From the sequence record NC_054929.1: DNA of 64,000 nt; one strand, written 5' to 3'. The notes under the pieces are model-generated. The model saw only the letters and a program-made list of their open reading frames with translations. It searched no databases and had not been told where the DNA came from. Source of the DNA: Escherichia phage PE37. This document shows, one piece after another, positions 1 through 26,016 of the stretch; position 1 is the stretch's first letter, and each line of letters opens with the position of its first letter. A program made the position numbers and the translations under genes.

Positions 1-26
1 ATACAGAAAACAACTTGGAGAATGAA

Positions 27-290
27 ATGGATAATTATGGTGAACTGTTCAACTTCTTTATGAAATGTGTTTCCGAAGATTTTGGTCGTACAGTGAATGA
101 TATTAAAGTTATCGGTCCTGACCATCCGATGTTTGAAACTTACGCAGTAATGGGTAATGAAGATGGTCAGTGGTATACTGTAAAGGTTGTGATTAACATG
201 TTCACAGCAGAAGGTTATGTTAAACTGTCTTCTAAAGTTTACCATGATAACGACGAAATCGCAGAAGAATATTTCAATAATATGAAATAA
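27..290 (+). CDS. hypothetical protein (e.8 position)
   Basis: ORF; ATG at 27 six nt after GGAG (track start 15 is a TTG inside the SD); preceded by conserved promoter-leader. Confidence 0.6.
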   Translation: MDNYGELFNFFMKCVSEDFGRTVNDIKVIGPDHPMFETYAVMGNEDGQWYTVKVVINMFTAEGYVKLSSKVYHDNDEIAEEYFNNMK

Positions 291-358
291 TTGTGTACAA
301 ACACCAAGGATGGTGTTATTATAGACTTATCAAAACAAATACAGAAACGGAGAAATAA

Positions 359-535
359 ATGACTACTTTAATTATTTGGTTTGACGAAAATGAAGAAACA
401 TATTGTGTGAACATTGGCGAAAGCCCAATGCCAGAATTTGAATCTTCAGATAAAAACTCGGTTATATCTTGGGCTGAAGGTTATAAAGCAGCAAAAGGCG
501 ATGTTGAAATAGTTTACAAACTATCCGGAGTATAA
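359..535 (+). CDS. small hypothetical protein (58 aa)
   Basis: ATG with GGAG upstream; fills gap between flanking genes; not in ORF track (<60 aa). Confidence 0.4.
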   Translation: MTTLIIWFDENEETYCVNIGESPMPEFESSDKNSVISWAEGYKAAKGDVEIVYKLSGV

Positions 536-578
536 TACTCTCATGGATTTTAAATCTTAATTAACCTAAGGAAATACT

Positions 579-1172
579 ATGAACACACTGAAGAAAATTG
601 TTGAGTTTATTCGCACTAAACTTGGTTCTGCTATGGCTAAAAATCTATCTGTTGAAGAGCAGTATACTGCCGCAGCAGCAAAATTGCTTGATAAAATTAA
701 AGATCTAAAAACTGCTTCTGTTAAATCTATTAATGAAGAAAAGCGTATTCGTGAACTTATTGTCGAAAAGAATAAGCAGGCCGAATCAAAAGAGCGTGAA
801 ATTCGCAAGCTCCTTTCGGAAGGTCAAGATGTAACAATGCATGCTAAACTTGGTTTACTATATCGTCGAACAGCTGAGCAGTTGACTACTAAAGCTGATG
901 GTTATGCTGAAATGCGAATTGAAATCGCCAAGAAAGTAGTTGAGTTAGATGATGCTCGCCAAGAACTTGCAGTTAAATTGGAATATATCCGTGAAACTCG
1001 TGCAGCGAATGCCCTTGGAATTAGTACTGCCGATGATGTAGTTGAAATTGCAGCGCTGACTAAGGTTGATATTGAAGATACTCTTGCTCGAGTTGAAACC
1101 TTTAACGGTAATATTTCTGGGGTTGAAACCACCTCTGCCGATGTTCAGGAATATATTAATTCTCTGAAATAA
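579..1172 (+). CDS. coiled-coil protein, PspA/IM30-like (e.6 position)
   Basis: ATG+SD; 197 aa helical, charge pattern resembling PspA/Vipp1 family. Confidence 0.6.
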
Positions 1173-1175
1173 TGA

Positions 1176-1199
1176 TAAGGGGCTTCGGCCCCTATTACT
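1176..1199 (+). terminator. UUCG-tetraloop hairpin (GGGGCTTCGGCCCC)
   Basis: perfect GC stem with UUCG loop; weak U tract. Confidence 0.5.
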
Positions 1200-1213
1200 T
1201 GGAGTAAGTAGGA

Positions 1214-1822
1214 ATGAAAATGCAAAGTGATTTCAATTCAATGTTTGAAGAGTTCCAAAGACAGGTTGATGTTCCAGACCAATTATTAAATGCTCTTAAA
1301 CGTATGGCAGAAGGACGTAATTATTATTGGGGTTCTTCATATGAAACTGTTGAAAGTCTTTCTGGAAGATTTTCTAGAGGTAAAAAGTCTTTAATACGTC
1401 CTGGAATACTTATTAACAGTATTGAATCAATTCATTTATTAACATGCGATTTTGACGTTGAATTTACTGATTTTGTTTCTCCTGAATGGACGGTCTGTTA
1501 TTTAAACGACGATTATGATTATCTTGGCGTTTATAGTTTAAGTGATGCATGGTTTAAACGTAATTTACAAAAGTCAAATTTATTCTATATTGATACTACT
1601 GTAAAATTTCAGGGCAAGAAATATTTCTTTACTCTTATAGTTGACTCTGAAACAAAATATGAAAATAAACGTATTCTTAGTAAAAAGAATATCTTAACTA
1701 CTGTCGATGATCTTTTTGATAAATTCGTAGAAAATCCCAATTTTGAAAGCGATTTATTATTAGAAAAATTTGTTAAGGAATGTAGAGAATATGTCAAAAC
1801 CATCACTATACCTTCCAAGTAA
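1214..1822 (+). CDS. hypothetical protein (e.5 position)
   Basis: ATG+SD GGAG; 202 aa. Confidence 0.65.
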   Translation: MKMQSDFNSMFEEFQRQVDVPDQLLNALKRMAEGRNYYWGSSYETVESLSGRFSRGKKSLIRPGILINSIESIHLLTCDFDVEFTDFVSPEWTVCYLNDDYDYLGVYSLSDAWFKRNLQKSNLFYIDTTVKFQGKKYFFTLIVDSETKYENKRILSKKNILTTVDDLFDKFVENPNFESDLLLEKFVKECREYVKTITIPSK

Positions 1823-2183
1823 ACCGTTGAAGTATGAATTAAAGCGTCAGATAATTTCTACTGATGTGTTAATAGGTCCTGTGGTAGCTGTATCATTTGT
1901 GATTCTGCTGATTGCTGGAATGGTTATAGACGTTATGACTGATATTGGATCTAATACAATATTTGCGTCAACGCTAATTCTTCCATTGGTAGTTCCGCTT
2001 TTATTAGTACCTATAAATTGGATAGGATATTGGTATCAAGGAAGACACTATCGTAAACGTGTACGTGATTGGAAAGCCCAGTGCAAAAAGATTAAAAAAG
2101 AACATCAGCTTAAACTTGCTGCGTATGAATTTGATGAAATTATGAAATTTGTTAAGGAATCACGATGCAAAAGCCAAAACTAA
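1791..2183 (+). CDS. membrane protein, e.x paralog family
   Basis: in-frame ATG at 1791; hydrophobic segments; C-terminal motif shared with neighbours. Confidence 0.55.
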   Translation: MSKPSLYLPSKPLKYELKRQIISTDVLIGPVVAVSFVILLIAGMVIDVMTDIGSNTIFASTLILPLVVPLLLVPINWIGYWYQGRHYRKRVRDWKAQCKKIKKEHQLKLAAYEFDEIMKFVKESRCKSQN

Positions 2184-2527
2184 ATAAAGCCAAATATTCG
2201 TTTCCAGAGGCACTATTAATTCTTGCCGTATCAGCATTTACAGCTCTTGCGGGTAGTCTTATTGGATTATTAATTGACTGTTTTATTTTAAACATCGACG
2301 GCACAGTAATTATAACAGAGGTTTGGAGTGAACTTCGTTATACTATAGCGATTTCATTATTTTCATTCTTTGGTACCATGTTATATTTTCATTATGATAA
2401 TTTTAAAATAAATTGGCAAAGAAAAAAAGATTACAAAATACAATTAAAAGAATATAATAGCTACATGTCTTATATTGAAAAAGAATCAATGGAAGAGTTT
2501 GTGAGTGATTGTAGGAAAATTAAATGA
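2165..2527 (+). CDS. membrane protein, e.x paralog family
   Basis: ATG; 2-3 TM segments; C-terminal ...DCRKIK. Confidence 0.6.
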   Translation: MQKPKLNKAKYSFPEALLILAVSAFTALAGSLIGLLIDCFILNIDGTVIITEVWSELRYTIAISLFSFFGTMLYFHYDNFKINWQRKKDYKIQLKEYNSYMSYIEKESMEEFVSDCRKIK

Positions 2528-3012
2528 TTTTAAAAACTCGCTGGTATGATTTAGATGACGGGGATGATGGCATTTCAGTTAATAGAGTTGACTGGAATGG
2601 CTGTTCCGAAGATATGAAAAATTTGCTGATTAGGGAGTTTAGAATGGGATATCAACCAGTTAAGCCATCTACTGCAACAGATGATAAATTCGTGTGTATT
2701 CATAATGGTCGCGCTAAATTAACGAACGCTGATTGGTTCACAGATAAAATTATGATTCTGTGGTATATTATTAGTCTTCCTGTGACATCATTCGTATTTT
2801 ACTTTTTTATAAAAAATCCAATGGACAGAATAGGAGATTGGATTCTTTTAACCATACTTGTTAATATTTTTACTGCAGCAATATTATCTGGGATATGGTA
2901 CACGTTCATTGAAATGCCATGGCGTTTACGCAGACAACAAAAGATTTTTGATGAAAAGAAATATACCCAAAATTTAAATAGCTTTATCACTGAATGCAGG
3001 AAATTAAAATGA
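2524..3012 (+). CDS. membrane protein, e.x paralog family (e.2 position)
   Basis: ATGA overlap with upstream gene; TM segments; C-terminal ...ECRKLK. Confidence 0.6.
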   Translation: MILKTRWYDLDDGDDGISVNRVDWNGCSEDMKNLLIREFRMGYQPVKPSTATDDKFVCIHNGRAKLTNADWFTDKIMILWYIISLPVTSFVFYFFIKNPMDRIGDWILLTILVNIFTAAILSGIWYTFIEMPWRLRRQQKIFDEKKYTQNLNSFITECRKLK

Positions 3013-3449
3013 AAACATTATCAGTTGGTATTATCTTTATGACAGAAGATAAAGATTTATTTATGGGTCGGGTTACTGGTTCTCGTAAGCCTGGAATGAT
3101 GGCACATCGCTGGGATATTCCAAAGGGCCGTGTAGAAAATTCTGATTTAAGCGCATTAGATGCAGCACGAAGAGAATGTTTAGAAGAGACTGGTTTTAGC
3201 AATTATAATCCAGACCTTCTAGAAGACCTAGGTGTATTTAAATATTCTAGTAATAAAGACTTACAGTTATTTTATTATACGATTCCAGTAGAGCATGAGA
3301 TGTTCAGAAATTGCCATTGCGAGTCTTATTTTGAAAATAAAGATGGTGTTATGATTCCAGAGATGGACGCTTTTGCTCTTATTCCTCATACTCAGTGGCA
3401 ATATGTGATGGGTCCTTCACTTTACCGAATAATGAACAACCTCTTTTAA
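3009..3449 (+). CDS. nudE: Nudix hydrolase NudE
   Basis: Nudix box G-x5-E-x7-REC-x-EETG; immediately upstream of e as in T4; start 3009 vs 2994 uncertain. Confidence 0.75.
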   Translation: MKTLSVGIIFMTEDKDLFMGRVTGSRKPGMMAHRWDIPKGRVENSDLSALDAARRECLEETGFSNYNPDLLEDLGVFKYSSNKDLQLFYYTIPVEHEMFRNCHCESYFENKDGVMIPEMDAFALIPHTQWQYVMGPSLYRIMNNLF

Positions 3450-4020
<571 letters not shown>

Positions 4021-4039
4021 AGTTACTTGGAGGGATAAA

Positions 4040-4456
4040 ATGACTCGTATTAATTTGACTTTAGTATCTGAACTTGCTGATCAACATTTAATCGCAGAAT
4101 ACCGTGAATTGCCACGTGTTTTTGGTATAGTTCGTAAACATGTGGCAAATGGTAAACGGGTTAAAGATTTTAAAATATCTTCCGAGTTTATTTTAGGTTC
4201 TGGTCATGTTACGTTCTTTTACGATAAGTTAGAATTTTTGCGAAAGCGTCAATCAGACATTATAACGGAATGCTTAAAACGCGGGTTTAGTATAAAAGAT
4301 ACTGAAGTTCCTGACATCGGCGATATTCCAGCAGAATGGAAAAATGATTATAATCCATGCAAATCAGCTATTAAATTGAGTCAACAACGACTCAATGAAA
4401 AAATTTTAATGAAGCCACACTGGTACAAGTATTACGGCAAAAATATTTACATTTAA
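4040..4456 (+). CDS. denV: endonuclease V, pyrimidine-dimer DNA glycosylase
   Basis: 138 aa, [17 protein letters not shown]..., matches T4 endo V. Confidence 0.95.
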
Positions 4457-4465
4457 AGGAAACAC

Positions 4466-4939
4466 ATGAAAACATATCAAGAATTTATTACTGAAGCAGC
4501 TATTAATTCTCAAATTATTGCTGAATCTTTTACTGATCTTTTGAAATTTAAAAAAGGTCAAAAAATCACTGCTGTATTGGATGATGGTACAGAAGTTGAG
4601 ATGGATGTACAGGGATATAATTATGCAGTAGATGGAAAACTGTATAATAAATCTCATGCTAAATTTGATTCATTTGACGACTTTGTTAATACAGTTGAAG
4701 ATGAAAAAACTCGTCGATCCATTGCAACTGGTGATGCTAAGGTTCTTATGGCACATGGTCATGAACGCATTCGCGCTAAACAGAATAAAATGGGCGAAGA
4801 TAATTTCGCATTAGTTGGTTATCAATCTGGTAAACAAACTTATGGTTATCAGCGTACTGCTACCATGTATAATAAAAATGGTAAAATTGCCTTTGTGAAT
4901 AGTAAGGGTTCTATTCAGTACGTTAAATCGTTCAAATAA
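4466..4939 (+). CDS. capsid internal protein (Ip family)
   Basis: N-terminal capsid-targeting sequence MKTYQEFITE with protease site after E; 157 aa, length differs from T4 ipII/ipIII. Confidence 0.75.
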   Translation: MKTYQEFITEAAINSQIIAESFTDLLKFKKGQKITAVLDDGTEVEMDVQGYNYAVDGKLYNKSHAKFDSFDDFVNTVEDEKTRRSIATGDAKVLMAHGHERIRAKQNKMGEDNFALVGYQSGKQTYGYQRTATMYNKNGKIAFVNSKGSIQYVKSFK

Positions 4940-5073
4940 TATGGGAACAGCCTGGACCTCATTTGAGGTATTCCCGCCAACCTGTAATAAGGTCGAGCCC
5001 AAGCGCGGTAATGGGTAAATACAGAAATGGACAATTCATGCGCCATGGAATGGCCCAAACTTAGAGAGAAGAA

Positions 5074-5613
5074 ATGAGAACATTTTTAACTGGTCCTTAT
5101 CTATCCCTGATGAATGCTTTTACACACCATTCTGATGCTAGAGTAGAAGAAATTTGTAAAAACGAATATATCCCGCCATTTGAAGACTTACTTAAGCAGT
5201 ATTGCACACTTCGTATAGATGGTGGACGTCAATCCGGTAAATCAACTGCTGTGACTAACTTTGCTGCTAATTGGCTGTATGATGGTGGAACAGTTATTGT
5301 TCTTTCTAATACTTCAGCTTACGCTAAAATTTCTGCAAATAACATTAAAAAAGAATTTTCTCGTTATTCTGGCGATGATATTCGATTCCGCTTATTTACC
5401 GATTCTGTCCGTAGTTTTATCGGTAATAAAGGAAGCAAGTTCAGAGGTTTATCGCTTTCACGAATTTTGTATATAATTGATGAGCCTGTTAAAGCTCCTG
5501 ATATGGATAAAATTTACGATATTCATATTGAAACTGTACATTACTGTTGCAATAGTAAATGCTGCATTGGTGGTATTACTCGTCCACAGTTTTTCATAAT
5601 CGGAATGCAATGA
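5074..5613 (+). CDS. small P-loop NTPase (vs.8 position)
   Basis: Walker A GGRQSGKST, Walker B ILYIIDEP. Confidence 0.6.
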   Translation: MRTFLTGPYLSLMNAFTHHSDARVEEICKNEYIPPFEDLLKQYCTLRIDGGRQSGKSTAVTNFAANWLYDGGTVIVLSNTSAYAKISANNIKKEFSRYSGDDIRFRLFTDSVRSFIGNKGSKFRGLSLSRILYIIDEPVKAPDMDKIYDIHIETVHYCCNSKCCIGGITRPQFFIIGMQ

Positions 5614-5939
5614 TGACAGACACACAGCTTTTCGAATATCTTTATTTTTCGCCAAAAACTATTAAAAATAAATTGGTGAATCATTTTGAAATTTTGGCAA
5701 ATAATAACGTCTTGAGCGAATTTTATCCTAAGCAATACAAATTACAAAAAGGCGTATTCAAAGGATGCAGAGTTTTGTGCACTGCTCCTAATGCAAGATT
5801 AATGAATAAAATTCCATATTTTACCATGGAATTTATTGATGGACCTTTTAAAGGACTAATCACCCAAAGTTTAATGGCATATGATTCTGAGCCATTTTTA
5901 ATTAAAGAACAGTCTTGGATAAATTTATTTTCTAATTGA
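5610..5939 (+). CDS. hypothetical protein
   Basis: ATGATGA overlap with upstream stop. Confidence 0.5.
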   Translation: MMTDTQLFEYLYFSPKTIKNKLVNHFEILANNNVLSEFYPKQYKLQKGVFKGCRVLCTAPNARLMNKIPYFTMEFIDGPFKGLITQSLMAYDSEPFLIKEQSWINLFSN

Positions 5940-5945
5940 GGTTAT

Positions 5946-6308
5946 ATGAAAGCATATCAAATTCTTGAAGGCACACATAAAGGTACTATTTATTTTGAAG
6001 ATGGTATTCAAGCACGAATTATTGTCTCCAAAACCTTTAAAGAGGACTCTTTTGTAGACCCAGAAATTTTCTACGGTTTGCATGCCCGTGAAATTGAAAT
6101 TGAACCACAGCCTACAGTTAAAATTGAAGGTGGTCAACACCTGAACGTTAACGTTCTGCGTCGTGAAACTCTGGAAGATGCAGTTAAGCATCCGGAAAAA
6201 TATCCGCAGCTGACCATCCGTGTATCCGGTTATGCAGTTCGCTTTAACTCTCTGACTCCGGAACAGCAGCGCGACGTTATCGCTCGTACCTTTACTGAGA
6301 GCTTGTAA
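5946..6308 (+). CDS. autonomous glycyl-radical cofactor (GrcA/YfiD-like)
   Basis: C-terminal [29 protein letters not shown] glycyl-radical motif; 3' half has E. coli-like codon usage. Confidence 0.85.
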
Positions 6309-6529
6309 TGGCAAAGATAATTATTGAAGGTTCTAAAGATGTGTTAAATGCTTTCGCCGAGTGGTTTAGTAATTCAGGCGAACAGCAATTTAATGAAGCG
6401 TGGACCATGGGTGATATTGATGGAATTTATCCTACGACAGAAATTTCTGTTCAAGGATATGGCATTCATGAACCTATTCGTTTAGTTGAATATGATTTAT
6501 GTACTGGTGAGGAAGTCAAATATGATTGA
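6308..6529 (+). CDS. hypothetical protein
   Basis: TAATG overlap; 73 aa. Confidence 0.55.
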   Translation: MAKIIIEGSKDVLNAFAEWFSNSGEQQFNEAWTMGDIDGIYPTTEISVQGYGIHEPIRLVEYDLCTGEEVKYD

Positions 6530-6788
6530 AGACATTAAGGGTTATAAGCCACATACTGAAGAGAAAATCGGTAAAGTGAATGCTATCAAAGATGCTGAAG
6601 TTCGTTTAGGACTTATCTTTGACGCTTTATATGATGAATTCTGGGAAGCACTAGATAATTGTGAAGACTGTGAATTCGCGAAGAATTATGCTGAAAGTCT
6701 CGATCAGTTAACTATTGCTAAAACGAAACTCAAAGAAGCCAGTATGTGGGCTTGTCGTGCTGTGTTCCAACCAGAGGAAAAATATTAA
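6522..6788 (+). CDS. hypothetical protein at vs.4 position (candidate Acb2-like cyclic-nucleotide sponge)
   Basis: in-frame ATG at 6522; assignment by synteny only. Confidence 0.5.
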
Positions 6789-7066
6789 TGGCTCAATTAA
6801 GCGCAGGGTTTGGTTATGAGTATTATACTGCCCCTCGTCGTGCATCTGTTGCTCCTAAGAAAATTCAAAGTCTTGATGACTTCCAAGAAGTAGTCCGTAA
6901 AGCTTTTCAGGACTATGCACGTTATCTTAAAGAAGATTCACAGGACTGTCTCGAAGAAGATGAAATTGCTTACTATACGCAGCGTCTTGAACAGCTCAAA
7001 AATCTACATGAGGTTCGTGCAGAAGTTTCAAAGTCTATGAATAAATTGATTAGATTTAAAGAATAA
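6788..7066 (+). CDS. hypothetical protein
   Basis: in-frame ATG at 6788 overlapping upstream stop. Confidence 0.5.
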
Positions 7067-7105
7067 CTGTTTACTTTTCCTCTTGACTGTGGTATAATTT
7101 TTCTA
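7060..7105 (+). promoter_or_regulatory. early promoter
   Basis: GTTTAC 7069-7074, 18 bp, TATAAT 7093-7098. Confidence 0.7.
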
Positions 7106-7125
7106 TCAGTTAAGAGGAGAATAAC

Positions 7126-7587
7126 ATGACTATCAATACAGAAGTTTTTATCCGTCGAAATAAGCTTCGTCGTCACTTTGAGTCGGAGTTTCGTCAAATT
7201 AACAATGAGATTCGTGAGGCATCAAAAGCAGCAGGGGTCTCATCGTTTCATCTAAAATATTCTCAGCATCTTCTTGATCGTGCAATTCAACGGGAGATTG
7301 ATGAGACATATGTTTTTGAATTATTCCACAAAATAAAAGACCATGTTTTAGAAGTTAATGAATTCCTGAGTATGCCTCCGCGTCCTGACATTGACGAGGA
7401 TTTTATTGATGGGGTTGAATATCGTCCTGGGCGTTTGGAAATTACAGATGGAAATCTTTGGCTTGGATTTACAGTTTGTAAGCCTAATGAGAAGTTCAAA
7501 AACCCGTCACTTCAATGCAGGATGGCAATTATCAACAGTCGTCGTTTACCAGGAAAGGCTTCTAAAGCAGTAATTAAAACTCAATGA
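7126..7587 (+). CDS. regB: endoribonuclease RegB
   Basis: 153 aa, MTINTEVFIRRNKLRRHFESEFRQ..., matches T4 RegB; SD GAGGAG. Confidence 0.9.
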   Translation: MTINTEVFIRRNKLRRHFESEFRQINNEIREASKAAGVSSFHLKYSQHLLDRAIQREIDETYVFELFHKIKDHVLEVNEFLSMPPRPDIDEDFIDGVEYRPGRLEITDGNLWLGFTVCKPNEKFKNPSLQCRMAIINSRRLPGKASKAVIKTQ

Positions 7588-7594
7588 GGTAAGC

Positions 7595-8140
7595 ATGAGA
7601 AAAGCACTACTCGCTGGTCTATTGGCCATTTCAATGATGGCACATAGCTCCGAGCATACTTTCAGTAATGTCCAACTCGATAACATGCGTTACGCGTATC
7701 AATTCGGGGAACAATTTTCTAAGGATGGAAAATATAAAACACACAAAAATATCCACAAGAGCGGATTAGGTCATATAATGGCTGCTATTTTATGGCAAGA
7801 AAGCTCTGGCGGAGTTAATTTAAAATCTAAACCAAAGCATCACGCCTACGGAATGTTCCAAAATTATTTGCCTACTATGCGAGCAAGAGTTAAGGAACTT
7901 GGTTATAATATGACCGATGCTGAAATAAAAAGAATGTTGAATAAACGGTCCAATTCAGCTTCCTGGGCGTACATTGAACTTTCTTATTGGTTAAATATAC
8001 ATAAGGGCGATATAAGAAAAGCAATATCCTCTTATAATTCGGGATGGAATGTTAAAGCAGGTTCTAAATATGCTTCTGAAGTCCTAGAAAAGGCTAATTA
8101 CCTTAAAAATAATAAACTTTTGGAAATAGTAAATGACTAA
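7595..8140 (+). CDS. secreted lytic transglycosylase-like protein (vs.1 position)
   Basis: signal peptide; SLT-like motifs (WQESSG, AYGMFQ). Confidence 0.65.
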   Translation: MRKALLAGLLAISMMAHSSEHTFSNVQLDNMRYAYQFGEQFSKDGKYKTHKNIHKSGLGHIMAAILWQESSGGVNLKSKPKHHAYGMFQNYLPTMRARVKELGYNMTDAEIKRMLNKRSNSASWAYIELSYWLNIHKGDIRKAISSYNSGWNVKAGSKYASEVLEKANYLKNNKLLEIVND

Positions 8141-8474
8141 AATTTTGGTTTTATGTATAGGATTAATTTCATTTTCTGCGTTAGCAAATACATCATATAC
8201 TGAAATTAGAGAGTATGTAAACCGTACTGCCGCGGATTATTGCGGGAAAAATAAAGCATGCCAAGCTGAATTTGCGCAGAAATTAATATATGCATATAAA
8301 GACGGAGAAAGAGATAAATCAAGCAGATACAAAAATGATACATTGTTAAAACGATATGCTAAAAAGTGGAATACCTTAGAATGTTCAGTTGCGGAGGAGA
8401 AAGATAAAGCCGCTTGTCATTCAATGGTTGACCGTTTAGTAGATTCTTATAATCGAGGATTGAGTACTAGATGA
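8133..8474 (+). CDS. vs: valyl-tRNA synthetase modifier-like protein
   Basis: 113 aa, position between regB/vs.1 and tk as in T4; signal-like N-terminus. Confidence 0.55.
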   Translation: MTKILVLCIGLISFSALANTSYTEIREYVNRTAADYCGKNKACQAEFAQKLIYAYKDGERDKSSRYKNDTLLKRYAKKWNTLECSVAEEKDKAACHSMVDRLVDSYNRGLSTR

Positions 8475-8950
8475 TTGTAAAATATATCAAGGGCGATATT
8501 GTCGCCCTATTTCTTCAAGGTAATATTATTGCGCACGGGTGCAATTGTTTTCATACTATGGGTTCAGGTGTAGCGGGTCAATTAGCAAGAGCCTATCCTA
8601 AAATTTTAGAAATAGATAAAACCACTACTGAGTACGGTTCTCGTGATAAATTAGGCGATATGTCTATTGTTTTTAAACATAATCCTACGGGATTTGGTAT
8701 ATGCTATAACCTGTATACGCAATACGAACCGGGTCCTAATCTTGATTATGGTGCTTTAGTAAACTGCATGATAGAATTAAATCTACAGGCAGAAACCCTT
8801 TTGTTTAAACCAGTAATTTACATTCCACGCATAGGTTGTGGTATTGCTGGCGGTGATTGGGATAAGGTTTCTAAATTAATCGACATGTTTACTCCTGATA
8901 TTGATTTAATAGTGGTGGATTATGAAAGTACATTACCCGCATCCGTTTGA
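8471..8950 (+). CDS. macro-domain protein (ADP-ribose binding/processing)
   Basis: GDIV...NIIAHGCNCFHTMGSGVAGQLA macro-domain signature. Confidence 0.6.
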   Translation: MIVKYIKGDIVALFLQGNIIAHGCNCFHTMGSGVAGQLARAYPKILEIDKTTTEYGSRDKLGDMSIVFKHNPTGFGICYNLYTQYEPGPNLDYGALVNCMIELNLQAETLLFKPVIYIPRIGCGIAGGDWDKVSKLIDMFTPDIDLIVVDYESTLPASV

Positions 8951-9134
8951 TCCTAAAAACAAAGTGGAAATTATTCGTCAATGGGAACGCATTTGCCGTA
9001 CTAAATGCCCAATTAATAGTCCACATGATGTAGATAAAGACTATATTGGAACATTCGTTGAATATACCTTTATTGATAGGAAAGGTCGTAAACAACATGT
9101 AGAAGAATATTGCTTAAAGGTTACATGGTTATGA
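8922..9134 (+). CDS. hypothetical protein
   Basis: ATG; 70 aa. Confidence 0.5.
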   Translation: MKVHYPHPFDPKNKVEIIRQWERICRTKCPINSPHDVDKDYIGTFVEYTFIDRKGRKQHVEEYCLKVTWL

Positions 9135-9337
9135 GCCAAACTAGTATTCTTAAAAATGCTCATTGTGAAAAGTGTGAATGGCCAGTTGTTTTTGCTTTAT
9201 GTAATGATGAAATGGCTTGTGATTTCGATTATTGGTGCTATTGTTCCAATAAAGGATGCATCAATCATAAAGGTGAAGGATTTTATTCAGGATTTTATCC
9301 TTATCCTGATTTCGTTAAAGAAGGTAAACCGAAATGA
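9131..9337 (+). CDS. Cys-rich small protein (probable zinc binding)
   Basis: ATGA overlap; CEKCEW...CDFDYWCYC...GC. Confidence 0.5.
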   Translation: MSQTSILKNAHCEKCEWPVVFALCNDEMACDFDYWCYCSNKGCINHKGEGFYSGFYPYPDFVKEGKPK

Positions 9338-9507
9338 ATAGTTTTGAGTTACAATATGAAGTGTTACGTGAGCTTGATAATTTAATTGAACTCGCTGCTA
9401 ATAAAGGTTTTGCCATTGGAATCGGTCAAAAAGATACTGACCATTTAACTACGGAAATATTTAAGCAAAAGCGAATTATTTTAAAACTCCTGGAAATTAA
9501 TATATGA
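9334..9507 (+). CDS. small hypothetical protein (57 aa)
   Basis: ATGA overlaps at both ends; not in ORF track. Confidence 0.45.
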   Translation: MNSFELQYEVLRELDNLIELAANKGFAIGIGQKDTDHLTTEIFKQKRIILKLLEINI

Positions 9508-9689
9508 GTCTGAGTAAAGAACAAAAAGATAAATTGTTTGAGCTTATCCATGAACTTCTAGATGAGCATGCAGAAGCAAACACCTTTTATGATGAATACG
9601 GCCCGCTATCTCCCGAACAACAAGAAGAATTTGCTGACCGGTTTGATAAGAAAGAAAACGAATTAATAGCTTATGTGAATACGCTTTAA
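9504..9689 (+). CDS. hypothetical acidic protein
   Basis: ATG; 61 aa. Confidence 0.5.
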   Translation: MSLSKEQKDKLFELIHELLDEHAEANTFYDEYGPLSPEQQEEFADRFDKKENELIAYVNTL

Positions 9690-9698
9690 GAAGGTGAT

Positions 9699-10280
9699 AT
9701 GGCGAGTTTAATTTTTACTTATGCAGCAATGAATGCTGGAAAATCTGCTTCTCTTTTGACTGCTGCACATAATTATAAAGAACGTGGAATGAGTGTATTA
9801 GTTCTTAAGCCTGCTATTGATACTCGCGATTCTGTCTGTGAAGTTGTTTCTCGCATTGGAATTAAACAGGAAGCGAATATTATTACAGATGATATGGATA
9901 TTTTCGAGTTCTATAAATGGGCTGAAGCACAAAAAGATATTCATTGTGTATTTGTAGATGAAGCTCAGTTTTTAAAAACTGAACAAGTGCATCAATTGAG
10001 CCGAATTGTTGATACATATAATGTTCCTGTTATGGCTTATGGATTAAGGACTGATTTCGCTGGAAAATTGTTTGAAGGTTCTAAAGAACTTTTAGCGATT
10101 GCAGATAAACTTATTGAACTAAAGGCAGTTTGTCATTGCGGCAAAAAAGCGATTATGACAGCTCGATTAATGGAAGATGGAACACCAGTTAAAGAAGGTA
10201 ATCAAATCTGTATTGGTGATGAAATTTATGTTTCTTTGTGCAGAAAACATTGGAATGAATTAACTAAAAAGCTCGGTTAG
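9699..10280 (+). CDS. tk: thymidine kinase
   Basis: 193 aa, MASLIFTYAAMNAGKSASLL..., P-loop plus C-terminal zinc ribbon; matches T4 Tk. Confidence 0.95.
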   Translation: MASLIFTYAAMNAGKSASLLTAAHNYKERGMSVLVLKPAIDTRDSVCEVVSRIGIKQEANIITDDMDIFEFYKWAEAQKDIHCVFVDEAQFLKTEQVHQLSRIVDTYNVPVMAYGLRTDFAGKLFEGSKELLAIADKLIELKAVCHCGKKAIMTARLMEDGTPVKEGNQICIGDEIYVSLCRKHWNELTKKLG

Positions 10281-10289
10281 TGCAAAAGT

Positions 10290-10297
10290 TATAAATA
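10290..10297 (+). promoter_or_regulatory. late promoter TATAAATA
   Basis: exact TATAAATA about 26 nt upstream of ATG 10323. Confidence 0.5.
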
Positions 10298-10322
10298 GGT
10301 TTATCTAACTAAAGGGGTATAT

Positions 10323-10535
10323 ATGCTACAATTAACTGAAAAGCAACTTCGCAATCTTACTGTTCTTCAATTAGATGAAATTCGTAGGGAAGTTGGAAAT
10401 ATCATTTCAGCTTTGCGTCGAGAAGTATCACTCAACCAATCTCCGGCAGACTATACTAGATTGCGAAATTTTGAAAAATACCTTGATAAAGTTAAGGCCG
10501 TGCATCGGCATAAAGTAAATACAGGACAAAAATGA
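10323..10535 (+). CDS. hypothetical protein
   Basis: ATG+SD GGGGTAT; 70 aa. Confidence 0.55.
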
Positions 10536-10547
10536 TAGGAGGCCTTT

Positions 10548-10841
10548 ATGGCCTTAAAAGCAACGGCACTATTTGCCATGCTAGGATTAGCGTTTGCTTT
10601 ATCTCCACCGATTGAAGCGAATGTCGATCCTCATTTTGATAAATTTATGGAATCTGGCATTAGACATGTTTATATGCTTTTTGAAAATAAAAGCGTAGAA
10701 TCATCTGAACAGTTCTATAGTTTTATGCGAACGACCTATAAAAATGACCCGTGCTCTTCCGATTTTGAATGTATAGAGCGAGGCGCGGAGATGGCACAAT
10801 CATACGCTAGAATTATGAACATTAAATTGGAGACTGAATGA
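10548..10841 (+). CDS. secreted hypothetical protein
   Basis: SD GGAGG; signal peptide. Confidence 0.6.
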   Translation: MALKATALFAMLGLAFALSPPIEANVDPHFDKFMESGIRHVYMLFENKSVESSEQFYSFMRTTYKNDPCSSDFECIERGAEMAQSYARIMNIKLETE

Positions 10842-11224
10842 AATTCAGCGACTTTTCACAAAGTGGAAAACCTTCAAAGGCAGATGAATACTTAGGTTTA
10901 TTAATGGCTGCACAAGCTTATTTTCATTCTGCACATTTTGAAACTAAAAGTTATGCTAGACACAAAGCATACGATTTTATTTTCTCCGAGTTGCCAGATT
11001 TGATTGATAAATTTGGTGAGCAATATTTGGGGTATTCTGGTAGAAAATACACACCTTCAATTCCAGATGCCAGTAAACTTCCTACCGACACAATTAAAAT
11101 GATTGATCGCATACTAGACCAATCTAACAGCATTTATAAAGAAATGCCTCCAGCCATCCAAAGCACGATAGATGATATTACTGGAATGTTTTACCAGAGT
11201 AAATATCTTCTTTCCCTCGAATAA
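10838..11224 (+). CDS. hypothetical protein
   Basis: ATGA overlap; 128 aa. Confidence 0.6.
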
Positions 11225-11228
11225 CATT

Positions 11229-11252
11229 AGTCTCCTTCGGGAGACTTTTTTC
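11229..11252 (+). terminator. rho-independent terminator (UUCG loop)
   Basis: AGTCTCCTTCGGGAGACT followed by TTTTTT. Confidence 0.8.
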
Positions 11253-11300
11253 ATTTTACCGGTTTACTTTCCATTTGAGCTGTGATACTATACAACTATC
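11252..11300 (+). promoter_or_regulatory. early promoter
   Basis: GTTTAC 11262-11267, 18 bp, TACTAT. Confidence 0.65.
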
Positions 11301-11319
11301 GGATAAAGAGGAGAACATC

Positions 11320-11508
11320 ATGAAAATTGAAGCACTTAATCAAGAAGGAAATATCTACGTCATTATTAATGGTGATTTTTTCGTCGACATGGATGAAGTT
11401 ACTAGTGAAGAACTTGTAGAACTTCTTAAGAAACGTTATAATATGTGTGATGAAGTTGCAACTCACATGGCGTGTGCAATATTCTCTCTTTCATATGTGG
11501 TGGAATAA
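11320..11508 (+). CDS. hypothetical protein
   Basis: ATG+SD GAGGAG. Confidence 0.55.
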
Positions 11509-11711
11509 TGATTAGTATTGAACAAGCAGATAAAATTAAGGAATTAGTGGCTTCAATTCGTAAAGCAGATGAAGAGCTGATTGACTTTGATTGGTATTCA
11601 TCGGGTATTTCTAATAAAGGCATTAAAGACTTTGAAACTAAAGTGGATAATGCTATAGAAGCGTTAGATATGTTTCTTGATGAAATTATCGATCATAATA
11701 CAAGAGTGTAA
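11508..11711 (+). CDS. hypothetical protein
   Basis: TAATG junction (GGTGGAATAATG). Confidence 0.5.
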   Translation: MISIEQADKIKELVASIRKADEELIDFDWYSSGISNKGIKDFETKVDNAIEALDMFLDEIIDHNTRV

Positions 11712-11713
11712 GT

Positions 11714-11908
11714 ATGCTAACACGCGAACAGTTTGAAAAAATCATTAAATTAGCACGTGATATTGAAATAGATTCATATCAATTAGCAGTTGAGCATTGT
11801 GAAGGATATTCATACGACGGTATAGAAGCAGCTAAAAAGGATTTGGATAAATCTAAAGCTAAGCTAGTTCAATATCTTGAAATGATTAGGTGGAATAATG
11901 AAAACTGA
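11714..11908 (+). CDS. hypothetical protein
   Basis: ATG; 64 aa. Confidence 0.5.
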   Translation: MLTREQFEKIIKLARDIEIDSYQLAVEHCEGYSYDGIEAAKKDLDKSKAKLVQYLEMIRWNNEN

Positions 11909-12071
11909 AAAGCAGATGTTTTTAATGAAACTAATTGAAGAATATGCTAATGCAGTTTCTGACTATGAATGTTCTTCTCGGGAAAGAGGTACAGCTTTCG
12001 CCAAAGAAGAAATGAAAATCATGGTTGATGCTCACACAAAGCTTCAGAATTTTATTGAAAACGTCATTTAA
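11898..12071 (+). CDS. small hypothetical protein (57 aa)
   Basis: same GGTGGAATAATG junction as 11508; not in ORF track. Confidence 0.4.
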   Translation: MKTEKQMFLMKLIEEYANAVSDYECSSRERGTAFAKEEMKIMVDAHTKLQNFIENVI

Positions 12072-23728: not shown

Positions 23729-24202
23729 ATGTTATTGACTGGCAAATTATATAAAGAAGAAAAACAGAAATTTTATGATGCACAAAATGGTAAATGTTTA
23801 ATTTGCCAACGAGAACTAAATCCTGACGTTCAAGCTAATCATCTTGATCATGACCATGAATTAAATGGACCAAAAGCAGGAAAAGTACGTGGATTGCTCT
23901 GTAATCTCTGCAATGCCGCGGAAGGTCAAATGAAGCATAAATTTAATCGTTCTGGCTTAAAGGGACAAGGCGTTGATTATCTTGAATGGTTAGAAAATTT
24001 ACTTACTTATTTAAAATCCGATTACACCCAAAATAATATTCATCCTAACTTTGTTGGAGATAAATCAAAGGAATTTTCTCGTTTAGGAAAAGAGGAAATG
24101 ATGGCTGAGATGCTTCAAAGAGGATTTGAATATAATGAATCTGACACTAAAACACAATTAATAGCTTCATTTAAGAAGCAGCTTAGAAAGAGTTTAAAAT
24201 GA
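23729..24202 (+). CDS. 49: endonuclease VII (Holliday junction resolvase)
   Basis: 157 aa, MLLTGKLYKEEKQKFYDAQNGKCLICQ..., matches T4 gp49. Confidence 0.95.
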   Translation: MLLTGKLYKEEKQKFYDAQNGKCLICQRELNPDVQANHLDHDHELNGPKAGKVRGLLCNLCNAAEGQMKHKFNRSGLKGQGVDYLEWLENLLTYLKSDYTQNNIHPNFVGDKSKEFSRLGKEEMMAEMLQRGFEYNESDTKTQLIASFKKQLRKSLK

Positions 24203-26016
24203 CAATTGAAAAAGAAATTGAAGGATTGATTCATAAAACTAATAAAGACCTTTTAAACGAGAATGCTAATAAAGATTCTCGTGTTTTTCCAACTCAACGG
24301 GACCTTATGGCTGGTATTGTGTCTAAACACATTGCCAAAAATATGGTCCCGTCTTTTATTATGAAAGCGCATGAAAGCGGAATTATTCATTTCCATGATA
24401 TTGATTATTCCCCTGCTCTTCCATTTACTAATTGCTGTTTAGTAGATTTAAAAGGAATGCTTGAGAACGGATTTAAGCTTGGTAATGCACAGATTGAAAC
24501 TCCTAAATCAATTGGTGTTGCTACTGCAATTATGGCACAAATTACTGCACAGGTTGCTTCCCATCAATACGGCGGAACGACTTTTGCTAATGTAGATAAA
24601 GTACTTTCTCCTTATGTTAAACGCACCTATGCAAAACATATTGAGGATGCAGAAAAATGGCAAATCGCTGATGCGTTGAATTATGCTCAATCTAAAACAG
24701 AAAAAGATGTATACGATGCATTCCAAGCTTATGAATATGAAGTAAATACTCTCTTTAGTTCAAACGGACAAACGCCTTTTGTAACAATTACATTTGGTAC
24801 GGGAACTGACTGGACTGAACGAATGATTCAGAAAGCAATTCTGAAAAATCGTATTAAAGGTCTCGGTCGTGATGGGATAACTCCTATTTTTCCTAAGCTT
24901 GTTATGTTCGTCGAAGAAGGCGTTAATCTTTACAAAGACGATCCGAATTACGACATTAAGCAACTTGCTCTAGAGTGCGCAAGCAAAAGGATGTATCCTG
25001 ATATTATTTCAGCTAAGAACAATAAAGCTATCACCGGCTCATCTATTCCTGTTTCTCCAATGGGTTGCCGCAGTTTCTTGAGTGTGTGGAAAGATTCAAC
25101 CGGTAATGAAATTCTTGATGGACGTAATAATCTCGGTGTTGTAACGCTGAATCTTCCTCGTATCGCATTAGATTCTTATATTGGAACACAGTTCAATGAA
25201 CAGAAATTTATCGAATTGTTCAATGAACGAATGGATTTATGTTTTGAAGCTTTGATGTGCAGAATTAGTTCCTTAAAAGGAGTTAAAGCGACTGTTGCTC
25301 CTATTCTTTACCAAGAAGGTGCATTCGGGGTTCGTCTTAAACCTGATGACGATATAATTGAGTTATTTAAAAACGGCAGAAGTTCAGTGTCTCTAGGATA
25401 CATTGGTATTCACGAATTGAATATTCTTGTCGGTCGTGATATTGGACGAGAAATTTTAACTAAAATGAATGCTCATCTTAAACAGTGGACTGAAAGAACC
25501 GGTTTTGCTTTTAGTTTGTATTCTACACCTGCTGAAAACCTGTGCTATCGCTTCTGTAAACTTGATACTGAAAAATATGGAAGTGTAAAGGATGTTACTG
25601 ATAAAGGCTGGTACACTAACAGTTTCCACGTTTCAGTAGAAGAAAATATCACTCCGTTTGAAAAGATTTCTCGCGAAGCACCATATCATTTCATTGCGAC
25701 AGGTGGCCACATTTCTTATGTTGAACTTCCTGATATGAAAAATAACTTAAAAGGTCTTGAGGCTGTATGGGATTATGCCGCACAACATTTAGATTATTTT
25801 GGTGTTAATATGCCGGTAGATAAATGTTTTACATGCGGAAGTACCCATGAAATGACTCCTACTGAAAACGGATTTGTTTGTTCTATTTGTGGAGAAACTG
25901 ATCCTAAAAAGATGAACACAATAAGAAGAACATGTGGTTATTTGGGAAATCCGAACGAACGCGGATTTAATCTCGGTAAAAATAAAGAAATCATGCATAG
26001 GGTTAAACACCAATGA
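24199..26016 (+). CDS. nrdD: anaerobic ribonucleoside-triphosphate reductase
   Basis: 605 aa uninterrupted ORF; C-terminal glycyl-radical and Cys motifs; matches T4 NrdD. Confidence 0.93.
   Translation: MTIEKEIEGLIHKTNKDLLNENANKDSRVFPTQRDLMAGIVSKHIAKNMVPSFIMKAHESGIIHFHDIDYSPALPFTNCCLVDLKGMLENGFKLGNAQIETPKSIGVATAIMAQITAQVASHQYGGTTFANVDKVLSPYVKRTYAKHIEDAEKWQIADALNYAQSKTEKDVYDAFQAYEYEVNTLFSSNGQTPFVTITFGTGTDWTERMIQKAILKNRIKGLGRDGITPIFPKLVMFVEEGVNLYKDDPNYDIKQLALECASKRMYPDIISAKNNKAITGSSIPVSPMGCRSFLSVWKDSTGNEILDGRNNLGVVTLNLPRIALDSYIGTQFNEQKFIELFNERMDLCFEALMCRISSLKGVKATVAPILYQEGAFGVRLKPDDDIIELFKNGRSSVSLGYIGIHELNILVGRDIGREILTKMNAHLKQWTERTGFAFSLYSTPAENLCYRFCKLDTEKYGSVKDVTDKGWYTNSFHVSVEENITPFEKISREAPYHFIATGGHISYVELPDMKNNLKGLEAVWDYAAQHLDYFGVNMPVDKCFTCGSTHEMTPTENGFVCSICGETDPKKMNTIRRTCGYLGNPNERGFNLGKNKEIMHRVKHQ

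Follow-up and report, generated by a model that had tools for sequence, protein, structure and literature searches.

A tract identical to Escherichia coli grcA in the GrcA-like gene vs.6 of a T4-type phage

The DNA analysed here, referred to as the window, is a 64,000-nt stretch of Escherichia phage PE37 (sequence record NC_054929.1). Its genome type is that of a T4-type phage of the genus Tequatrovirus, and the 75 ORFs of at least 100 codons that passed a non-overlap filter are all encoded on the + strand. The gene under study, vs.6 (Table 1), is identical to its T4 counterpart at 356 of 363 nucleotides (98.1%) and 119 of 120 amino acids, and is 98-99% identical in DNA to the vs.6 genes of several hundred T4-like phages. 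The gene order vs.8, vs.7, vs.6, vs.5, vs.4, vs.3, regB is shared with both T4 and Shigella phage vB_SsoM_113, and a match to phrog_1209 over residues 1-120 (E 1.2e-62) places the product in the orthologous group of T4-type vs.6 proteins. The vs.7 gene ends 6 nt before the vs.6 ATG, and vs.5 overlaps the vs.6 stop by 1 nt. Since no sigma-70-like promoter was found immediately 5' of vs.6, the gene appears to be read within the + strand run vs.8-vs.7-vs.6-vs.5. A dedicated promoter or terminator was also considered for vs.6, and was rejected because consensus scans of the flanking DNA did not return more sites than scans of shuffled sequence.

Two of the upstream genes gave matches of their own. 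The product of vs.8 showed weak matches to Pfam AAA_14 (P-loop/AAA; E 0.0025, below the cut-off) and to the terminase large-subunit PHROG (7.7e-7) around a GGRQSGKST motif, and judging from these similarities it may be an uncharacterised NTPase. The ORF located two genes upstream of vs.6 matched PHROG 3155 (6e-102), which is described as 'internal virion protein'. The corresponding slot carries a denV annotation in Shigella phage vB_SsoM_113, and it appears to be variable among close relatives.

Table 1. Positions of vs.6, its parts and other ORFs mentioned in the text, in window coordinates.
Feature	Position	Strand	Description
ORF two genes upstream of vs.6	4466..4939	+	157 aa
vs.8	5074..5613	+	
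vs.7 stop codon	5937-5939		overlapped by the GAGG of vs.6
Shine-Dalgarno-like GAGG	5938..5941	+	4 nt 5' of the vs.6 ATG; read from the sequence
vs.6 (Y06I) CDS	5946..6308	+	120 aa; phage autonomous glycyl radical cofactor, GrcA/YfiD homolog
Codons 1-60 of vs.6	5946..6125	+	old, AT-rich, diverged phage version of the GrcA N-terminal half
Host-identical tract	6124..6298	+	175 nt, 100% identity to E. coli grcA; GrcA residues 68-124
Gly95 codon GGT	6228..6230	+	in RVSGYAV; equivalent of GrcA G102 and PFL G734
Phage-specific 3' end	6299..6310	+	last three sense codons synonymously different from E. coli, then stop
TAATG	6306-6310	+	vs.6 stop TAA overlapping the vs.5 ATG; vs.5 starts at 6308
ORF taken to be nrdD	24199..26016	+	605 aa

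The vs.6 product was compared with the protein families that share its C-terminal domain. Pfam PF01228 (Gly_radical) matched residues 61-101 (66.8 bits, cut-off 22.2, E 2.8e-18), and the best matches among solved structures were GrcA (6OWR, 8.6e-42) and the C-terminus of pyruvate formate-lyase (PFL, 5e-26). Residues 58-120 align to residues 697-759 of PFL (1H16), including the RVSGYAV loop, and Gly95 within this loop falls on the radical-bearing glycine of GrcA and PFL, as is required of a member of the family. Moreover, vs.6 is a small stand-alone protein without an enzyme barrel, as expected of GrcA/YfiD (approximately 14 kDa; TIGR04365, IPR011140), and its N-terminal half is likewise homologous to that of the family. 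The NCBIfam GrcA equivalog model TIGR04365 gave 153.3 bits and thus fell short of the 170 bits set as its cut-off, because the N-terminal half of vs.6 has diverged. This threshold is operational rather than biochemical. On the PFL model TIGR01255, vs.6 covers the last approximately 65 of 744 positions (680-744) and scores 88.9 bits against a cut-off of 994, and the ten-stranded barrel, the active-site cysteines and the length (approximately 750 aa or more) of a full-length glycyl radical enzyme are all absent. As the C-terminus is the only part of PFL that is matched, the 'pyruvate formate-lyase' labels given to vs.6 in GenBank are misnomers.

Knowledge of the gene and of its biochemical activity dates back to 2001. 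According to the account given in PMC8683613 of the work by Wagner et al. 2001 (BBRC 285:456), T4 Y06I, like YfiD, restores oxygen-cleaved PFL in vitro after installation of a radical by the PFL activase, and the same source describes E. coli YfiD and T4 Y06I as the only two validated spare-part proteins. The repair of PFL that had been proposed from the sequence of the window is thus supported but not new, having been reported for T4 Y06I, as that source relates. With all but one of 120 residues in common, the vs.6 protein of the window would be expected to restore oxygen-cleaved PFL as reported for its T4 counterpart. For an in vivo role during infection, no phenotype was found in the searchable literature.

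The annotation of the gene does not reflect this knowledge consistently. The T4 RefSeq entry (NP_049730) is already annotated as 'autonomous glycyl radical cofactor GrcA', whereas PHROGs lists phrog_1209 as 'unknown function' despite the protein being biochemically characterised, and the names found in GenBank include hypothetical protein, pyruvate formate-lyase, 2-ketobutyrate formate-lyase, acetyltransferase-related and ribonucleotide reductase subunit. In this respect, vs.6 exposes an annotation gap in both resources. Separately, a set of viral-labelled IMG/VR contigs with a GC content of approximately 0.5 (L162, L164, L165, L168-L170 and L172) carries ORFs of 260-284 aa, in which the last 60 residues closely resemble the PFL C-terminus. 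Instead of spare parts of phages, these ORFs may be pieces of pflB on contigs that derive from hosts or prophages.

The C-terminal half of vs.6 proved to be of host type at both the protein and the DNA level. Residues E61-L120, the last 60 of the protein, match residues 68-127 of E. coli GrcA at 60 of 60 positions, as a sequence-only reading of the window had anticipated when it described the C-terminal 60 residues of ORF 5946..6308 as essentially those of GrcA/YfiD. Nor was the nucleotide identity to host grcA low, which would have spoken against that reading: 175 of 175 nt (6124..6298) are base-for-base those of the SK1144/IAI1-type grcA allele, and two synonymous mismatches to it follow at 6299 and 6303. 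A blastn search against 5,426 complete E. coli genomes matched grcA in every genome at 98.9%, spanning query bases 179-363. The similarity to grcA ends right after the stop codon, with none beyond 6308. The last three sense codons are also variable among Tequatrovirus genomes with an otherwise E. coli-like tract, and the phage-specific 3' end likely represents the 3' limit of the host tract. The 5' half of vs.6, by comparison, is only approximately 56% identical to E. coli grcA in nucleotides. The boundary of the tract coincides with the protein architecture, as the identical stretch corresponds to the structured glycyl-radical domain of GrcA (residues 68-124).

The tract also stands out in composition. 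Its GC content is 0.497, compared to 0.344 for the 5' half of vs.6 and a mean of 0.347 for the coding sequence of the window, and it exceeds that of all 1,240 in-frame 171-nt stretches taken from the other ORFs of the window (maximum 0.474). Similarly, GC3 reaches 0.42, which falls within the top 0.8% of these control stretches, while the 5' half of vs.6 is at 0.217. Leucine is encoded by CTG in five of five tract codons (8% in the window overall), proline by CCG in three of three (16% in the window) and arginine by CGT or CGC in six of six. The GC and codon profiles therefore agree with the earlier description of a GC-rich segment with CTG, CGT and CCG codons, unlike the AT-rich phage background. 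A structured RNA or tRNA as the cause of the GC rise was rejected, as a search with Rfam at gathering thresholds gave no match in window positions 1..12000.

The sequence-only reading further held that the host-like domain was fused to a phage-specific N-terminal half, and this part of it had to be abandoned. Residues 1-60 of vs.6, when searched alone, align to GrcA residues 28-67 with 35% identity over 40 residues (BLASTP E 5e-6). When a profile of ten phage N-terminal halves was compared by hhalign with a profile of nine bacterial ones, the two proved homologous end to end (97.6% probability, E 4.5e-12, 60 columns), and the idea of a novel N-terminal domain was rejected on the basis of this comparison. 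In YfiD, residues 1-60 are disordered but help in binding to cleaved PFL and in radical installation, while residues 61-127 make up a structured domain duplicating PFL residues 693-759 (PMC8683613).

Homologs of vs.6 were found in 1,587 phage records, comprising T4-like genera, T5-like Demerecviridae, Aeromonas phages, and jumbo phages of Yersinia and Erwinia. In most of these homologs the 3' half is of near-phage composition and 65-85% identical to any sampled bacterial allele. According to PMC1524935, vs.6 is one of a small number of ORFs that are conserved throughout the early T4-like genomes. Taken together with the homology of the N-terminal halves, this long-standing conservation indicates that the 3' half of an existing phage homolog was overwritten by a host allele. 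Hence vs.6 is a mosaic in which a young tract from the host sits within an old grcA homolog of the phage, and no new fusion was created. In T5-like phage HildyBeyeler (L011 801-1169) and Aeromonas phage Riv-10 (L010 792-1160), the GrcA homolog lies inside or adjoining a phage tRNA cluster.

The donor of the tract was assessed by comparing the 3' 183 nt of vs.6 with grcA of 80 GTDB species representatives, five Klebsiella loci and one E. coli chromosome. Identity was highest for E. coli (98.9%), followed by another Escherichia species (97.8%) and Citrobacter amalonaticus (91.8%), while the Klebsiella loci (L174-L178) reached 86-87% and the range for Salmonella and Klebsiella together was 84-88%. 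E. coli was thereby the best match to the tract among 85 bacterial alleles. The Escherichia, Citrobacter and Klebsiella alleles encode the same or nearly the same 60 residues, and bacterial alleles that encode the same 60 residues nevertheless differ at 7-16% of the bases in this half of the gene. Between E. coli and Salmonella, the identity of grcA is approximately 84% for the 3' half and 85% for the 5' half, so the gene is not unusually conserved at the nucleotide level, which points to E. coli, or something indistinguishable from E. coli, as the donor. The transfer proceeded from host to phage and was recent relative to the divergence of the enteric genera. The capture from the host was proposed to be recent at the outset, and this is supported by the 175 nt being 100% identical to E. 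coli grcA in a region where E. coli and Salmonella share approximately 84%. Transfer in the opposite direction was rejected on two grounds: E. coli grcA diverges from the alleles of the closer enteric genera to a similar extent in both halves (84% and 85% identity to Salmonella), and its composition is host-like in E. coli, whereas that of the tract departs from the rest of the phage.

The distribution of the tract among phages was sharply bimodal, with 641 records at 95% identity or more to the window, 3 at 90-95% and 862 below 90%. E. coli phages outside Tequatrovirus (RB49, kaaroe and T5) show a tract identity of approximately 75%, and the E. coli-type tract is therefore a trait of Tequatrovirus rather than an automatic result of infecting E. 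coli. Comparison of the window with IMG/VR locus L099 gave 11 synonymous differences in the 5' half (38 sites) and none in the tract (43 sites; Fisher p = 1e-4). Moreover, the IMG/VR loci L099, L098 and L013 have nearly the same 5' half, yet their tracts carry 0, 2 and 6 changes from E. coli, respectively. By these counts, the remainder of vs.6 looks older than the tract within Tequatrovirus. Two of the phage variants in the tract correspond to polymorphisms within Escherichia, namely a K-12-type T-to-C change in L094 and, in L013, the T of Escherichia sp. L014. Such variants at host-polymorphic sites support exchange, though in a suggestive manner only, as the sites are fourfold degenerate and the changes could be recurrent mutations. 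A single amino-acid change was seen within the host-type tract, namely His73 of T4. The T4 reference gene (L216 3058-3420) has CAT at this codon, as opposed to an Arg codon (CGT) in the window, in E. coli and in the other Tequatrovirus genomes that were examined.

A parallel was found in Klebsiella phages of the sister genus Jiaodavirus. Here, the vs.6 homolog has a GC content of 0.54-0.56 in the 3' half, compared to 0.34-0.36 in the 5' half, and the similarity to the host gene starts at the same codon as in vs.6 of the window. The tract of Klebsiella phage Shinkou (L003 801-1163) is 97.0% identical to the Klebsiella allele L175 and 86.9% to E. coli, and the corresponding values for Klebsiella phage PKO111 (L004 801-1163) are 91.1% to a Klebsiella allele and 82.1% to E. 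coli. The exact donor of the Jiaodavirus tract was not found in a metagenome scan, which returned mostly Klebsiella-type alleles. The best metagenome allele was 93.4% identical over 183 nt and 96.4% over the 168-nt tract, and L175, at 97.0%, remained the best match overall. A 150-aa GrcA-like ORF with a 3' half 91.3% identical to Yersinia grcA was also observed on a viral-labelled 19-kb contig (L122, IMGVR_UViG_2706794630_000006), and this ORF may be a further host-matched case or just a piece of host DNA.

Viewed together, the sequence comparisons in the two genera favour at least two independent host-type replacements, with some later refreshing. Phage-to-phage recombination within a genus could account for part of the exchange pattern, and the pattern in Tequatrovirus could even stem from one event followed by such recombination, instead of repeated host-to-phage transfer. 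A bolder proposal is that the radical domain of vs.6 evolves in concert with grcA of the host genus by recurrent short-patch homologous recombination, codons 61-117 having been overwritten with the E. coli type in Tequatrovirus and with the Klebsiella type in Jiaodavirus. We put this forward as a tentative possibility, with the balance tipped slightly against it. Should it be true, the spare part would be kept exactly matched to the local PFL and PflA, and gene conversion from host to phage would be taking place in nature in a phage that is strictly lytic and degrades the DNA of its host. The early degradation of host DNA by T4 should make recombination with that DNA rare. Neither host-tracking gene conversion nor a nucleotide-level mosaic of vs.6 was found in the searchable literature.

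Another way to arrive at a host-like 3' half would be a single ancient capture of the whole gene, in which the N-terminal half then diverged fast because it is disordered, whereas selection held the 3' half fixed and the host contributed no further sequence. In favour of this scenario, the C-terminal domain is very strongly constrained at the protein level in all phages, but selection on the protein does not freeze synonymous sites. The phage tract shows 0 differences in 175 nt where bacterial alleles coding for the same residues differ by 7-16%, the 5' halves of Tequatrovirus sublineages are separated by 11 synonymous differences, and in other phage genera a nearly identical protein is encoded by 3' halves adapted to a high AT content. 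A frozen ancient copy is thus considered very unlikely.

A different function for the protein was also weighed, namely that it is a spare part or helper for the phage anaerobic ribonucleotide reductase, NrdD, rather than for host PFL. The 605-aa ORF further downstream in the window, ending in ...TIRRTCGYLGNPNERGF..., is presumably nrdD, the phage glycyl-radical anaerobic ribonucleotide reductase, and if so, the window contains two glycyl-radical proteins, 18 kb apart. Elsewhere the association is closer. The homolog in Aeromonas phage PX29 (L012 801-1178) sits directly between nrdG and nrdC in an anaerobic reductase cluster with the order nrdD, nrdG, vs.6, nrdC, nrdH, and that of the Yersinia jumbo phage fHe-Yen9-04 (L008 795-1157) is located one gene after nrdD. 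A role in nucleotide metabolism was suggested in an early comparative paper (PMC1524935), and spare parts for other glycyl radical enzymes have been speculated upon (PMC8683613). In vs.6 of the window, however, the C-terminal domain is that of GrcA and PFL-like (RVSGYAVRF..., 5e-26), whereas NrdD ends in ...RRTCGYLG..., the gene lies at the above-mentioned distance from nrdD, and T4 Y06I is reported to restore PFL, in the account given in PMC8683613. Service to NrdD is therefore held to be a shade less probable for vs.6 than the frozen copy, whereas by analogy with their gene neighbourhoods it is a possibility that some distant phage homologs (PX29, fHe-Yen9-04) do serve NrdD.

Phages often encode mimics of host proteins, and vs.6, which carries an exact copy of the PflA recognition loop, could in principle be a decoy that soaks up PflA or occupies PFL and thereby redirects host metabolism. 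Published work as described in PMC8683613 reports restoration of PFL activity and not inhibition, and radical installation on YfiD requires a complex with cleaved PFL, which argues against titration of free PflA (PMC8683613). A decoy function is accordingly regarded as the least probable of the biological alternatives, with hardly any weight attached to it. Lastly, an assembly or contamination artefact, with host reads joined to phage reads, has nothing more than the sharp change in composition to its credit and was discarded outright, given that the reading frame is continuous and that the same structure, with the same junctions, recurs across hundreds of phages, the T4 reference included (tract identity of 95% or higher in 641 phage records that were sequenced independently).

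It is thus highly probable that the locus encodes the T4-type vs.6/Y06I protein, a GrcA-like spare part for PFL, in the form of an old phage homolog in which codons 61-117 have been overwritten by E. coli sequence. Following the published work on YfiD and T4 Y06I, oxygen would cleave host PFL at the radical glycine G734, and the C-terminal domain of vs.6 would dock into the damaged enzyme to replace the lost piece. The host activase PflA would then put a new radical on Gly95 of vs.6, rendering PFL active again. A phage-encoded copy would presumably keep PFL-dependent fermentation going during infection at low oxygen, and such a copy may be useful because T4 shuts off host gene expression.

As for the origin of the tract, codons 61-117 would have been overwritten by an E. 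coli chromosomal allele in the Tequatrovirus lineage, probably through homologous recombination within the conserved domain. The 5' limit of the tract may simply mark where the similarity between phage and host runs out, such that recombination can start only in the conserved domain. The 3' limit may be explained by the TAATG overlap with vs.5, which has to be preserved: recombination would have to end before the stop codon, since the host sequence at this place (TAAGG) would abolish the start of vs.5. Refreshing of the tract seems to have occurred on more than one occasion. In evolutionary terms, the value of vs.6 lies in an unusually clear case of a fresh piece of host chromosome (175 of 175 bases) inside an old gene of a virulent phage, and together with the Klebsiella-type parallel in the sister genus, the tract could be used to gauge how frequently lytic phages recombine with host DNA in nature.

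Among known systems, the closest is T4 vs.6/Y06I (NP_049730), which is the same gene with the same neighbours, and which differs by seven bases and by the His at residue 73, where both this phage and E. coli have Arg. E. coli GrcA (YfiD, 6OWR) is of the same size class and similarly combines a variable N-terminal half with a structured glycyl-radical domain. It differs in that the N-terminal half of vs.6 has diverged and vs.6 is 7 residues shorter, and in the genomic setting, vs.6 being part of a phage early-gene cluster while grcA lies between ung and eamB. The C-terminal domain of PflB (1H16, 2PFL) shares the RVSGYAV radical loop with vs.6, but vs.6 has no catalytic barrel, active-site cysteines or substrate site, and can therefore act only as a replacement part. 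A looser analogy is offered by cyanophage psbA, a host-derived metabolic gene that exchanges segments with host copies. Like psbA, vs.6 would be a phage copy of a host metabolic gene that sustains host energy metabolism and is mosaic with the host gene. In contrast to psbA, the exchanged part in vs.6 is a 175-nt domain inside a 363-nt gene, and its product repairs the host enzyme rather than replacing it.
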